41,651 bases of DNA from Escherichia coli (GCF_003334335.1 NZ_QOWQ01000037.1), one strand, 5' to 3'. Counted from the first letter of the stretch, positions 18,756 to 34,810 are shown. Numbers and translations are program-made. The notes: generated from the sequence alone by a model not told the origin.

Positions 18756-19409
18756 TTATATCCCTTCTTCACTCTCTTTTTTCGCTTCTGCCTTCTCGAT
18801 TTCACGATACCAGCGCGGATGGTGTTTCTTCGCCCAGCGACGACTTACCTTCCCTTCGATCATCCCTTTAATCGATCCTTTCACCCAAAATGCCATATAC
18901 ATATGGATCAGGATGGCGTGGATCAGGATGATACCCGCAGCCGCGTGGATCAGCAGGCTGTAGCGAACAACCTGCATCGGGAAGTACTGCGCAAAGTACG
19001 GACGCCAGATAATCACCCCGGTCACCAGCAGCACGAAAATCATGCTCATGATCGACCAGAACATCATCTTTTGCCCGGCGTTGTACTTACCGACATCCGC
19101 CACTTTATGCTCATTGCCTTTCAATACTTCGACAATGTTCAACAGCCACGGAATATCTTTCTTATCCGGGATGTTGTGATGCACAAAACGCACAAACATA
19201 AACATCAGTGCGACGAAAATCGCAATGCCGAAGAACGGGTGCAAAATGCGTCCCATCTGCGGCGTACCGAAGGTTTGCGTCAGCCATTGCAGCGTCGGGA
19301 AGAAGAACGAAATCCCGGACAGCGCCACCAGGAAGAAGCAAATCACCACGGTCCAGTGACAGGCGCGATCAATAAATTTGGTGCGCACAATCATTTTCGA
19401 CTTACTCAT
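18756..19409 (-). CDS. fdnI: Formate dehydrogenase-N gamma subunit (cytochrome b556)
   Basis: ORF track starts at 19451; the recognised product begins [19 protein letters not shown] at 19409 (217 aa); multi-pass membrane protein; 8-bp overlap with the fdnH stop. Confidence 0.9.
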
Positions 19410-20286
19410 GATGATCCTCCTCGTCATCGTCCACTTCCTTATTCGGGCCAATACCGATGTAGTGGAAAATCAACCCGGCAAAAGTGGCAATAAAGCCAGC
19501 CGCTGCCAGCGGTTTCAACGCGCCTTTCCACAGGCTTACCGAGGTGTCGATCTTCGGATCTTTCGGCAGACCGTGATACAGCTCCGGCTGATCGGCGTGA
19601 TGCAGCACGTACATAACGTGCGTACCACCGACCCCTTCCGGGTTGTAGACGCCAGCATGTTCGTAACCACGCGCTTTCAGTTTCGCCACGCGCTGTTCCG
19701 CCAGCTCCAGCATCTCCTTCTTGGTGCCGAAGTGGATAGCCCCGGTCGGACAGGTTTTCACACAAGCCGGTTCCTGGCCGACGCTGACGCGATCGACGCA
19801 GAGCGTGCATTTATATACCCGGTTATCCTCTTTGTTGAGGCGCGGAATATTAAACGGACACCCGGCAATGCAGTAACCACAGCCGATGCAGTTTTCCGAC
19901 TGGAAATCGACAATCCCGTTAGCGTACTGAATGATTGCACCAGCAGACGGGCACGCCTTCAGGCAGCCGGGATCTTCACAGTGCATACAGCCGTCTTTAC
20001 GGATCAGCCACTCCAGCTTGCCGTTCTGTTCGGTTTCGCTAAAGCGCATCACCGTCCAGGACTTGGCGCTCAGATCGGCGGGGTTATCGTAAACCCCGAC
20101 GCAGTGCCCCACTTCATCACGGATGTCGTTCCACTCCGAACACGCCACCTGACAGGCTTTACAGCCGATACAGGTGGAAACGTCGATAAGTTTTGCGACT
20201 TCTGCTTTGTAATCACGCACCTGAGAAGGCGGCGTGATGGAGTTAGTTGCGGACCTTTTGATAATGTCCTGCGTTTCCATAGCCAT
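19402..20286 (-). CDS. fdnH: Formate dehydrogenase-N beta subunit (4x[4Fe-4S])
   Basis: 294 aa; several CxxCxxCxxxC ferredoxin motifs and a C-terminal hydrophobic anchor. Confidence 0.95.
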
Positions 20287-20298
20287 CTGTTCGCCCCC

Positions 20299-31897: not shown

Positions 31898-33438
31898 AAA
31901 TCCGTTCACAAGTCGGCATGGTGCTTAACCTCGACAAATGTATCGGCTGCCATACCTGTTCGGTGACCTGTAAAAACGTCTGGACCGGGCGCGAAGGCAT
32001 GGAGTACGCATGGTTTAACAACGTCGAAACCAAACCGGGCATTGGTTATCCGAAAAACTGGGAAGATCAGGAAGAGTGGCAAGGCGGCTGGGTGCGTGAT
32101 GTGAATGGCAAGATACGCCCGCGTCTGGGCAACAAGATGGGCGTAATAACCAAAATCTTCGCCAACCCGGTGGTGCCGCAGATTGATGATTACTACGAAC
32201 CTTTCACCTTCGACTACGAACATTTGCATAGCGCACCGGAAGGCAAACATATTCCTACTGCTCGCCCGCGTTCACTGATTGACGGCAAACGGATGGACAA
32301 AGTGATCTGGGGGCCAAACTGGGAAGAACTGCTGGGCGGTGAGTTCGAAAAACGTGCCCGCGACCGCAACTTCGAGGCCATGCAAAAGGAGATGTACGGG
32401 CAGTTTGAAAACACCTTCATGATGTACCTGCCGCGCCTGTGCGAACACTGCCTCAATCCCAGCTGCGTGGCGACCTGCCCAAGCGGCGCTATCTACAAAC
32501 GCGAAGAAGACGGCATTGTGCTGATTGATCAGGATAAATGCCGTGGCTGGCGTTTGTGCATAAGCGGTTGTCCGTACAAAAAAATCTACTTCAACTGGAA
32601 AAGCGGCAAGTCAGAAAAATGCATCTTCTGTTACCCACGAATTGAGTCCGGTCAACCGACCGTGTGCTCAGAAACCTGCGTGGGTCGCATCCGGTATCTG
32701 GGCGTGCTGCTTTACGACGCCGACCGCATCGAGGAAGCGGCGAGCACCGAGCGCGAAGTTGACCTCTATGAACGCCAGTGCGAAGTGTTCCTCGATCCAC
32801 ACGATCCCTCAGTGATCGAGGAAGCCCTGAAACAAGGTATTCCACAAAATGTGATTGACGCTGCCCAGCGTTCGCCAGTCTACAAAATGGCGATGGACTG
32901 GAAACTGGCACTACCGTTGCACCCTGAATACCGCACCCTGCCGATGGTCTGGTACGTTCCTCCGCTGTCACCGATTCAGTCCTACGCAGATGCGGGCGGT
33001 TTGCCGAAAAGCGAAGGCGTGCTGCCCGCCATCGAAAGCCTGCGTATTCCGGTGCAATATCTCGCCAATATGTTGAGTGCCGGCGATACCGGTCCGGTAC
33101 TGCGGGCGCTGAAACGGATGATGGCGATGCGCCACTATATGCGTTCACAAACCGTGGAAGGCGTTACTGATACTCGTGCCATCGACGAAGTAGGCCTGAG
33201 CGTCGCCCAGGTCGAAGAGATGTATCGCTATCTCGCCATTGCCAACTATGAAGATCGTTTTGTTATCCCGACCAGCCATCGGGAAATGGCGGGCGATGCC
33301 TTCGCAGAACGCAACGGCTGCGGTTTTACCTTTGGCGACGGTTGCCACGGTTCGGACAGTAAATTCAACCTGTTCAACAGTAGCCGTATCGATGCCATCA
33401 ACATCACCGAAGTGCGCGACAAAGCGGAGGGCGAATAA
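31894..33438 (+). CDS. narY: Nitrate reductase Z beta subunit (Fe-S)
   Basis: 514 aa with multiple Cys clusters (CIGCHTCSVTC, CEHCLNPSCVATCPSGA); ATGA overlap with narZ. Confidence 0.95.
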   Translation: MKIRSQVGMVLNLDKCIGCHTCSVTCKNVWTGREGMEYAWFNNVETKPGIGYPKNWEDQEEWQGGWVRDVNGKIRPRLGNKMGVITKIFANPVVPQIDDYYEPFTFDYEHLHSAPEGKHIPTARPRSLIDGKRMDKVIWGPNWEELLGGEFEKRARDRNFEAMQKEMYGQFENTFMMYLPRLCEHCLNPSCVATCPSGAIYKREEDGIVLIDQDKCRGWRLCISGCPYKKIYFNWKSGKSEKCIFCYPRIESGQPTVCSETCVGRIRYLGVLLYDADRIEEAASTEREVDLYERQCEVFLDPHDPSVIEEALKQGIPQNVIDAAQRSPVYKMAMDWKLALPLHPEYRTLPMVWYVPPLSPIQSYADAGGLPKSEGVLPAIESLRIPVQYLANMLSAGDTGPVLRALKRMMAMRHYMRSQTVEGVTDTRAIDEVGLSVAQVEEMYRYLAIANYEDRFVIPTSHREMAGDAFAERNGCGFTFGDGCHGSDSKFNLFNSSRIDAINITEVRDKAEGE

Positions 33439-34133
33439 TGCAGATCCTCAAAGTGATCGGCCTGTTGATGGAGTATCCGGACGAGCTGTTGTGGGAATGC
33501 AAGGAGGACGCGCTGGCGTTGATCCGCCGCGACGCGCCGATGCTTACGGATTTCACCCACAACCTGCTTAACGCGCCGCTGCTGGATAAACAGGCCGAAT
33601 GGTGCGAAGTGTTTGACCGCGGGCGCACCACGTCGCTGCTGCTGTTCGAACATGTTCATGCCGAGTCCCGCGATCGCGGCCAGGCAATGGTGGACCTGCT
33701 GGCGGAGTATGAAAAGGTCGGCCTGCAGCTGGATTGTCGGGAACTGCCCGATTATCTACCGCTGTATCTGGAGTATTTAAGCGTACTGCCTGACGATCAG
33801 GCGAAAGAAGGATTGCTCAATGTTGCGCCGATCCTCGCCCTGCTTGGCGGTCGCTTAAAACAACGCGAGGCACCGTGGTACGCGTTGTTTGATGCTCTGC
33901 TGCAACTGGCGGGAAGCTCCCTTTCAAGTGACAGTGTCACAAAACAAGTAAACAGCGAAGAGCGCGATGACACCCGCCAGGCGCTTGATGCAGTGTGGGA
34001 AGAGGAACAGGTGAAGTTTATTGAAGATAACGCCACGGCGTGTGACAGCTCGCCGCTTAATCAATATCAGCGACGCTTTAGCCAGGATGTCGCGCCGCAA
34101 TATGTCGACATCAGTGCGGGAGGTGGGAAATGA
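33438..34133 (+). CDS. narW: Nitrate reductase Z assembly chaperone (delta)
   Basis: 231 aa, NarJ paralogue; start overlaps the narY stop. Confidence 0.9.
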
Positions 34134-34810
34134 TTCAGTATCTGAACGTCTTTTTTTACGATATCTACCCGTACATTTGTGCGACGGTGTTTTTCCTCGG
34201 CAGCTGGCTGCGCTACGACTACGGGCAGTACACCTGGCGCGCCTCCTCAAGTCAAATGCTCGATAAACGCGGGATGGTGATATGGTCGAATCTGTTCCAT
34301 ATCGGCATTTTGGGGATTTTCTTCGGGCACTTGTTCGGCATGTTAACGCCGCACTGGATGTACGCGTGGTTTTTGCCAGTGGCAGCGAAACAACTCATGG
34401 CGATGGTGCTCGGCGGTATTTGCGGTGTGTTGACGTTGATTGGCGGCGCAGGACTGCTGTGGCGCAGGCTGACAAATCAGCGCGTGCGTGCCACTTCCAC
34501 TACGCCGGATATCATCATCATGAGCATTTTGCTGATCCAGTGTCTGTTGGGGCTAAGTACCATACCGTTTTCAGCACAGTATCCTGATGGTAGCGAAATG
34601 ATGAAGCTGGTGGGTTGGGCGCAAAGCATTGTCACTTTCCGTGGTGGATCGTCAGAGATGCTCAACGGCGTAGCGTTCGTCTTCCGCCTGCATCTGGTGT
34701 TGGGAATGACCATCTTCCTGCTCTTCCCGTTCACCCGACTGGTGCATGTGTGGAGCGCGCCGTTTGAGTACTTTACTCGTCGATATCAAATTGTGCGTTC
34801 GCGGCGATAA
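34130..34810 (+). CDS. narV: Nitrate reductase Z gamma subunit (cytochrome b)
   Basis: 226-aa multi-pass membrane protein; ATGA overlap with narW. Confidence 0.9.

Follow-up and report, generated by a model that had tools for sequence, protein, structure and literature searches.

The fdnGHI and narUZYWV genes of Escherichia coli as neighbouring units in a conserved chromosomal block

The stretch analysed here (the window) comprises 41,651 nucleotides of one strand from Escherichia coli (GCF_003334335.1, NZ_QOWQ01000037.1), with positions counted from its first letter. Between 18756 and 34810 it carries fdnGHI, the genes of formate dehydrogenase-N (Fdh-N), and narUZYWV, the genes of a nitrate/nitrite transporter and nitrate reductase Z, with the exporter gene yddG and a pseudogene islet between them. 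The arrangement is very probably the standard neighbourhood adhP-yddM-fdnIHG / yddG-(yddL'K'J')-narUZYWV-yddE, made up of two independent units whose adjacency is inherited synteny. It is a long-known, ordinary neighbourhood of the E. coli chromosome; a preliminary description of the window had judged it well known and without novelty, and this judgement is borne out. Nothing in the region departs from the K-12 reference, and as textbook E. coli respiration it matters little. The value of the analysis is corrective: the neighbourhood should not be taken for a co-regulated formate-to-nitrate module, the overlap between fdnH and fdnI measures 8 nt, and fdnG needs annotation through its UGA selenocysteine codon rather than as two open reading frames (ORFs). 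A small comparative addition is that the layout of the gene overlaps is a lineage-specific fixed signature and that fdn and narZ are linked in a synteny block which has partly eroded and whose spacer varies.

The fdn and nar units lie on opposite strands, 3.3 kb apart. For comparison across species, a NarU scan of 100,044 species genomes yielded 80 loci with 10-kb flanks, which were sorted by tblastn with the window proteins and their K-12 paralogues into three groups: an enterobacterial narU/narZ-type, a narK/narGHJI-type beside narX, and a distant group (Pantoea, Vibrio, Pseudomonas and others). The divergent fdnG-yddG pair stands upstream in 17 of the 28 informative narU-type loci, meaning those in which the sequence upstream reaches at least 9 kb. 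These fdn-linked loci belong to Escherichia albertii, Citrobacter species, Pluralibacter, Yokenella, Kluyvera and some Enterobacter. In the other 11, which include Lelliottia, Klebsiella michiganensis, Raoultella, Leclercia, other Enterobacter and one Citrobacter freundii, fdn is missing within 10 kb, so that the linkage is not kept wherever the reductase locus occurs. No fdn was found within 10 kb of any narK/narGHJI-type locus. The spacer from yddG to narU varies from 1.7 to 6.1 kb across genera, and adhP and yddM upstream, together with nhoA, yddH and pptA downstream, are also conserved in the same genera.

The published regulation of the two units differs as well. It has been reported that fdnG is induced by anaerobiosis and nitrate, that narZ depends on RpoS, is not induced by nitrate and carries a small share of nitrate respiration, and that in nitrate respiration the main partner is NarG rather than NarZ (PMC7759655, review). 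With opposite strands and different reported regulation, dehydrogenase and reductase form neither one transcription unit nor a pair under a shared promoter or regulator. A literature search returned no open-access paper discussing the fdn-narZ linkage itself. The preliminary description had presented the region as a co-localised formate-to-nitrate respiratory chain; the co-location stands, and a functional unit is not supported, given the opposite strands, the variable and in E. coli partly decayed spacer, the incomplete linkage and the different regulation. With an unrelated exporter gene between the units as a fifth point, the adjacency is best interpreted as inherited synteny rather than a selected module.

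According to this reading, unit 1, on the minus strand, supplies Fdh-N, a periplasm-facing selenocysteine and molybdenum enzyme exported by the twin-arginine translocation (Tat) pathway, which oxidises formate and reduces menaquinone. The synthesis of FdnG requires read-through of UGA codon 196 directed by a selenocysteine insertion sequence (SECIS), and the predicted promoter of fdnGHI, with Fnr-like and NarL-like sites, lies between fdnG and yddG. The plus-strand unit 2 provides the transporter and nitrate reductase Z, a paralogue of NarGHI that is expected to oxidise quinol and reduce nitrate on the cytoplasmic side, with NarW as its assembly chaperone. Fdh-N and nitrate reductase Z can share a common quinone pool (menaquinone), like any dehydrogenase/reductase pair, and NarGHI, encoded elsewhere, is the nitrate-induced partner of Fdh-N. 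Within each unit, ribosomes finishing one gene may start the next at the short overlaps (-4/-1/-4 in narZYWV and -8 in fdnH/fdnI), and coordinated synthesis of the subunits is probably aided by these stop/start overlaps.

Positions 18000-36000 have 100% DNA identity with several E. coli chromosomes, and at least 80% of this interval is present in one place in 5321 of 5426 complete E. coli genomes. Strain PK6 is the best full-length match and the source of the RefSeq annotation (locus L001, whose coordinate plus 11999 gives the window coordinate); the paralogous operons narK-narGHJI and fdoGHI were taken from K-12 for protein comparison. In RefSeq, for PK6 and K-12 MG1655, the left part of the order reads adhP, yddM, fdnI-fdnH-fdnG (minus strand) and yddG, and the right part yddL, yddK/yddJ, narU, narZ, narY, narW, narV, yddE and nhoA. 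The outer limits, 18756 and 34810, are the stops of fdnI and narV. The span and the gene identities given in the preliminary description are exact according to the ORF list, the RefSeq annotation and the reading of the sequence, and yddG and the yddLKJ islet are, as it states, the only interruptions. The genes are as follows.

18756-19409, minus strand: fdnI, Fdh-N gamma subunit, di-haem cytochrome b, 217 aa
19402-20286, minus strand: fdnH, Fdh-N beta subunit, iron-sulphur protein, 294 aa
20299-23346, minus strand: fdnG, Fdh-N alpha subunit, molybdopterin/selenocysteine, twin-arginine signal SRRQFFK, 1015 aa
23578-24459, plus strand: yddG, aromatic amino acid exporter of the drug/metabolite transporter (DMT) family, divergent from fdnG
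24719-25009, plus strand: yddL fragment, an OmpC/OmpF/PhoE-type porin gene reduced to its N-terminal ~90 residues
25033-26363, plus strand: yddK + yddJ, frameshifted leucine-rich-repeat (LRR) gene, a pseudogene
26687-28075, plus strand: narU, nitrate/nitrite transporter of the major facilitator superfamily (MFS), 462 aa
28157-31897, plus strand: narZ, nitrate reductase Z alpha subunit, 1246 aa
31894-33438, plus strand: narY, beta subunit, 514 aa
33438-34133, plus strand: narW, NarJ-type assembly chaperone, 231 aa
34130-34810, plus strand: narV, gamma subunit, di-haem cytochrome b, 226 aa

All nine proteins, the eight of the two units and YddG, exceed the curated equivalog or subfamily cut-offs of NCBIfam, and eight of the nine genes are open from ATG to stop, the exception being fdnG with an in-frame TGA. 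In the protein comparison FdnGHI, YddG, NarU and NarZYWV are 99.8-100% identical to their K-12 counterparts, and only 47-79% to the Fdo, NarK and NarGHJI paralogues. FdnI scores 486.9 bits against the Fdh-N gamma model NF007558 (cut-off 339) and 268.4 bits against the Fdh-O gamma model, under its cut-off of 341, which indicates the N isoenzyme and not the O form; its identity is 100% to K-12 FdnI and 47.0% to FdoI. The four haem histidines His18, His57, His155 and His169 are present, numbered as in the literature on structure 1KQF. FdnH reaches 482 bits with TIGR01582 (cut-off 335), is identical to K-12 FdnH (100%) and 76.0% identical to FdoH, and has 17 cysteines and a C-terminal hydrophobic stretch at residues 258-279, as expected of a membrane anchor. 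The two halves of FdnG that flank the TGA match TIGR01553 positions 1-194 and 196-1009, the C-terminal half alone scoring 1319.7 bits against a cut-off of 814. The top Protein Data Bank (PDB) match is 1kqf_A, the FdnG of 1KQF, and identity is 99.9% to K-12 FdnG and 76.9% to FdoG. The N-terminus, MDVSRRQFFKICAGG...ALA, was recognised by its motif, not by a signal-peptide predictor, as a twin-arginine export signal.

The products of the second unit are assigned in the same way. NarU scores 1015.5 bits with the NarU-specific model NF011608 (cut-off 836) and is 99.8% identical to K-12 NarU and 74.9% to NarK. NarZ covers the full length of the curated narG equivalog TIGR01580 with 2330.1 bits (cut-off 1084), has NarG (1q16_A) as its top PDB match, and is 100% identical to K-12 NarZ and 78.7% to NarG. 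The residues aligned with the FS0 ligands His49, Cys53, Cys57 and Cys92 of NarG and with its molybdenum ligand Asp222 are H, C, C, C and D; the NarG numbering, without the initiator methionine, is that of the 1Q16 literature. NarY (TIGR01660, 980.8 bits, cut-off 524) is 100% identical to K-12 NarY and 78.2% to NarH, with 17 of 17 NarH cysteines kept. NarW exceeds both NF011628 (513.5 bits, cut-off 410) and the narJ model TIGR00684 (117 bits, cut-off 59), with identities of 100% to K-12 NarW and 55.9% to NarJ. NarV (TIGR00351, 427 bits, cut-off 106) is 100% identical to K-12 NarV and 71.7% to NarI, and keeps four haem-ligand histidines aligned to NarI His56, His66, His187 and His205, numbered as in the structure papers. 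From these alignments and from the position of narU 81 nt upstream of narZ, the reductase is assigned to isoenzyme Z, not A, of the Nar-type membrane-bound nitrate reductase. The family cut-offs, the PDB matches and the comparison with the K-12 paralogues uphold every subunit assignment of the preliminary description, including the choice among paralogues (Z rather than G, N rather than O, U rather than K), and the alignments confirm membership of the NarZ and FdnG families.

The selenocysteine recoding of fdnG was overlooked in that description. An in-frame TGA stands at codon 196 (22761-22759), because of which fdnG is listed mechanically as two ORFs of 803 and 195 aa. The codon lies within the following element.

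22706-22764, minus strand: SECIS hairpin, spanning UGA codon 196 and the sequence just 3' of it (Rfam RF01989, SECIS_3)

At 84.3 bits the match is well over the gathering score of 63, and it was the sole hit in an Rfam scan of the whole window at gathering thresholds, with no known small RNA or riboswitch found. Residues 194-198 of FdnG read RVUHG, with Sec196-His197 in place, and codon 196 is TGA in all 17 recovered fdnG genes. An identical score of 84.3 bits was obtained for fdoG (L003, 5183-5241) and for the fdnG genes of six other genera, which suggests that the 59-nt element is essentially invariant. The proteins around the SECIS element were observed to be only about 77-93% identical. 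Thus fdnG is a recoded selenoprotein gene, a matter of known biology that is essential to the anatomy of the region.

The stop/start junctions were read directly from the codons. The genes narZ and narY share a 4-nt ATGA overlap (31894-31897), narY and narW overlap by 1 nt in TAATG (33436-33440), and narW and narV again share ATGA (34130-34133), all three as given in the preliminary description. The same description placed an ATGA-type overlap at fdnH/fdnI, which is wrong in detail. This junction is an 8-nt overlap, ATGAGTAA, at 19409-19402: the start ATG of fdnI occupies 19409-19407 and the stop of fdnH, TAA, occupies 19404-19402. The end of fdnH reads CAT CAT GAG TAA and fdnI begins ATG AGT AAG, so that the TGA within the letters ATGA is out of frame for fdnH. 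A true 4-nt ATGA junction belongs to the paralogue fdoH/fdoI, and the preliminary description may have had that one in mind. Between fdnG and fdnH there is no overlap; a 12-nt gap contains a Shine-Dalgarno sequence.

One- and four-nucleotide overlaps are the commonest kind in bacterial operons, so in a single genome they are unremarkable. Their complete conservation across related loci goes beyond the single-genome observation. The enterobacterial narZYWV-type loci have -4 (ATGA), -1 (TAATG, with TGATG once) and -4 (ATGA) in all cases that could be evaluated (29, 28 and 27 loci at the successive junctions). All 17 enterobacterial narGHJI-type loci have -4, -4 and then -1 (11 loci) or +2 (6 loci), and Pseudomonas-type nar loci have gaps, mostly of 1-15 nt, at the same junctions. 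The 8-nt fdnH/fdnI overlap is kept in 9 of 9 evaluable loci, with fdnG/fdnH gaps of 11-13 nt. Each of the two lineages, narZYWV and narGHJI, thus has an overlap layout of its own as a fixed signature. In a side view of the same junctions (narZYWV- and narGHJI-type loci L005-L067; window 31894-34133; L002 6605-8850), the two layouts are seen to be swapped, each being fixed across the Enterobacteriaceae: the Z type has -1 between the beta and chaperone genes and -4 between the chaperone and gamma genes, and the A type has -4 at the first of these junctions and -1 or +2 at the second. A role of the overlaps in translational coupling, suggested in the preliminary description, appears plausible from this geometry, and their conservation would be weakly compatible with selection for coupled translation.

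Transcription of unit 1 was considered in the divergent gap between fdnG and yddG, which is 231 bp long and holds two candidate sites.

23472-23487, minus strand: inverted heptamer pair TACCGCT-at-TGAGGTA upstream of fdnG, read from the sequence
23411-23424, minus strand: Fnr-like half-palindrome TTGATttcgCGCAA upstream of fdnG, a pattern match with 2 mismatches

The heptamer pair is taken to be a candidate NarL 7-2-7 site and TTGATttcgCGCAA a candidate Fnr site, both in view of what is known of the fdnG promoter. A search with the Fnr consensus at 2 mismatches gave 38 matches in the window, with about 25 expected by chance; since such matches are common in the window, the assignment draws on position and prior knowledge. 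The other matches were dropped because the search is too unspecific, and the site upstream of fdnG was kept as a lead. A sigma-70 promoter scan of 18300-35300 gave 15 promoter-like sites against 18.8 in shuffled sequence, and an intrinsic-terminator scan of the same interval 18 terminator-like sites against 19.9. With no excess over shuffled sequence, both scans are uninformative on operon boundaries.

For unit 2, the extent of the operon at its two ends was considered. The gap between narU and narZ is 81 nt in the window and contains one structured element.

28078-28126, plus strand: imperfect hairpin in the narU-narZ gap, without a T-run 3'

The fold of 28070-28160 has -26.5 kcal/mol and a modest z of -2.1, on which account the hairpin was rejected as a strong structured element; it may be a decayed repetitive extragenic palindromic (REP) element or may act in the processing or stability of the mRNA. 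The gap is 37-168 nt in all narU-type loci except Enterobacter asburiae (L028, ~11370-11460), where the computed narU/narZ distance is -4 nt; this value is unchecked and could be a real junction fusion or an artefact that arose when the tblastn hit was extended as far as the following stop codon. The corresponding narK-narG gap is 335-516 nt, except in two Buttiauxella loci (L037 and L040) with about 3.5 kb. It has been reported that a point mutation upstream of narU raises all five narUZYWV transcripts (PMC11417348). Together with the short gap, this places narU in the narZ unit, and its co-transcription with narZYWV is supported. At the other end, yddE has the same orientation as narV and begins 78 nt beyond it; it was rejected as a member of the unit because it adjoins narV only in Escherichia and Citrobacter, in 9 of the 27 narU-type loci with sequence downstream of narV.

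Several points weigh against the account given here of two independent units with coupled internal junctions. The linkage of fdn to Z-type loci only, never to G-type loci, leaves some room for a functional reason. The promoter-site assignments are weak, being pattern matches combined with prior knowledge, and attenuation or processing of the transcript at the narU-narZ hairpin is conceivable. A Shine-Dalgarno sequence precedes each internal start by 6-8 nt (AGGAGG for narY, GGAGG for narW and narV, GAGGAGG for fdnI), so that each gene may be initiated independently, and the conservation of the overlaps is weak evidence for coupling because the overlapped bases are doubly constrained, as start and as stop codon. 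These starts also favour the view that the overlaps are a by-product of compact operons, with independent initiation and without meaningful coupling, as do the non-overlapping junctions of fdnG/fdnH and fdoG/fdoH (11-13 nt apart) and the small gaps of the Pseudomonas-type nar operons. This view is the less probable one: the overlap type is invariant in each paralogue lineage although NarW is only 66-96% identical across genera, and overlaps of 1 and 4 nt have the classical geometry of termination and reinitiation. That narU and narZYWV are two transcription units, with the gap hairpin as a terminator or processing site as in narK/narGHJI, is unlikely. In its favour are the hairpin itself and the separation of the paralogues narK and narG by 515 nt, a gap into part of which RefSeq places the NarS small RNA; but the narU-narZ gap is short in every narU-type locus but one, the hairpin has no T-run and only a modest z, the terminator scan is negative there, and the upstream mutation acts on all five transcripts (PMC11417348).

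The neighbourhood might also be a selected module, a dedicated chain from Fdh-N to nitrate reductase Z for formate-to-nitrate respiration, with the linkage kept by joint use or joint inheritance. The recurrence of fdnG-yddG upstream of narU in most informative loci, across at least six genera, speaks for it, as do the lack of fdn within 10 kb of any narK/narGHJI-type locus and the quinone pool common to both enzymes, which is established biochemistry. It is nevertheless regarded as highly improbable. The units occupy opposite strands and are separated by an unrelated exporter gene and by a spacer of variable length, which in E. coli is low-GC, decayed DNA; 11 of the 28 loci have no fdn within 10 kb; one locus has yddG but no fdn; and unrelated flanking genes are equally well conserved. 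The reported regulation is different, with NarG, not NarZ, as the main partner in nitrate respiration (PMC7759655). A speculative variant, thought quite unlikely, would make fdn-yddG-narUZYWV an ancestral enterobacterial formate-nitrate unit, from which narGHJI later took over the nitrate-induced role, the swapped overlaps tuning the synthesis of chaperone relative to subunits differently in the two lineages. It would draw on the linkage of fdn to the Z-type locus only and on the fixed, differing junction layouts (-4/-1/-4 against -4/-4/-1). Two independent units, adjacent through inherited synteny, remain the preferred reading.

The segment between the two units combines a conserved gene with decayed DNA. 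YddG scores 470.7 bits with NF008676 (cut-off 194), and its divergent pairing with fdnG is conserved in 17 loci with a gap of 197-288 nt. The yddL fragment matches positions 1-89 of the 368 of the OmpC model only, far under the cut-off, and is an incomplete pseudogene in RefSeq. The yddK/yddJ sequence has Pfam matches to LRR_4 and LRR_8, and RefSeq marks its frameshift. In E. coli the spacer has a GC content of 33-35%, compared with 52-57% for the operons on either side. The low-GC islet at 24600-26400 is matched in other genera (loci L005-L034) by 1.7-6.1 kb of varying length; because the same position differs in length among genera, the spacer behaves as a hotspot of insertion and decay. In one locus (L017, Enterobacteriaceae bacterium RIT691, 1-10000), maeA and yddG lie upstream of narU and fdnGHI is absent, as if fdn had been lost locally from the block. 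A repeat search found no meaningful repeats connecting the fdn and nar operons. Long-range inverted pairs (75-89% matches over 18-33 nt) lie within coding sequence and are probably due to chance or to shared coding of ferredoxin motifs.

The closest known systems are the K-12 operons themselves. K-12 fdnGHI (b1474-b1476, structure 1KQF) has the same genes with proteins 99.9-100% identical, and shares UGA codon 196 with its SECIS, the 8-nt fdnH/fdnI overlap and the divergent yddG; the difference is one amino acid in FdnG and nothing functional. K-12 narUZYWV (b1469-b1465) agrees in gene order, junctions and flanking genes, with NarZ, NarY, NarW and NarV at 100% and NarU at 99.8%. In the closest strain yddK/yddJ is one frameshifted LRR pseudogene in RefSeq, whereas K-12 has a yddK gene and a yddJ pseudogene; the ORF lengths, the one property compared, match K-12 (318 and 111 aa).

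The paralogous operons are more distant. The narK-narGHJI operon of nitrate reductase A (1Q16) has the same order of alpha, beta, chaperone and gamma genes after a NarK-family transporter and the same cofactor ligands, at 56-79% identity to the window proteins. It differs in its junctions, -4/-4/-1 where narZYWV has -4/-1/-4, and in its narK-narG gap of 515 nt in K-12, compared with 81 nt for narU-narZ in the window. The NarS small RNA (RefSeq) starts in the 3' end of narK and extends into this gap, and the operon adjoins narXL and is unlinked to fdn. Nitrate reductase A is induced by nitrate and anaerobiosis, unlike narZ (PMC7759655). The fdoGHI-fdhE operon of Fdh-O encodes the same three-subunit enzyme, with UGA codon 196, an equal-scoring SECIS, a Tat signal and a 12-nt gap between the G and H genes. 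Its proteins are 47-77% identical to those of Fdh-N, its fdoH/fdoI junction is the 4-nt ATGA overlap, and fdhE comes after it. Expression of fdoGHI is reported at a low constitutive level (PMC7759655).

Further features were observed in the flanks of the block. The interval between fdnI and yddM (18344-18699) holds a 178-nt unit in tandem, in two copies that are 95% identical. In each unit a AAATGGCGC...GCGCCATTTT-type hairpin is accompanied by a pair of REP-like palindromes (GCCGGATGCGGCGTGAACGCCTTATCCGGC and GGCCTGATAAGCGTAGCGCATCAGGC), and an extra copy of the hairpin directly follows the fdnI stop at about 18730-18700. This is probably the fdn terminator region embedded in an array resembling a bacterial interspersed mosaic element (BIME). 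Next to it, yddM (18065-18349, the longest ORF starting from 17987) is similar to HigA-family antitoxins (TIGR02607, 92.7 bits) and is annotated in K-12 as a transcriptional regulator. No toxin gene is visible beside it and adhP ends at 17919, so yddM looks like an orphan antitoxin.

On the far side of the nar unit, two riboswitch findings from other genera lie 3' of narV and are unrelated to the fdn-nar question. These are an M-box magnesium riboswitch in Kluyvera (L026, 18414-18597; 104.5 bits, Rfam) and two opposed matches to the xanthine (NMT1) riboswitch in Pluralibacter gergoviae (L034, 20768-21095; 55.5 and 50.4 bits). In the window, the conserved block is bordered downstream of pptA by a mobile and degenerate segment at about 37795-41651 (L001 25796-30001). 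It comprises an ISAs1-family (ISEc5) transposase gene, ydcC, another ISAs1 transposase that is frameshifted, yncO/ydcD and the end of an RHS element.

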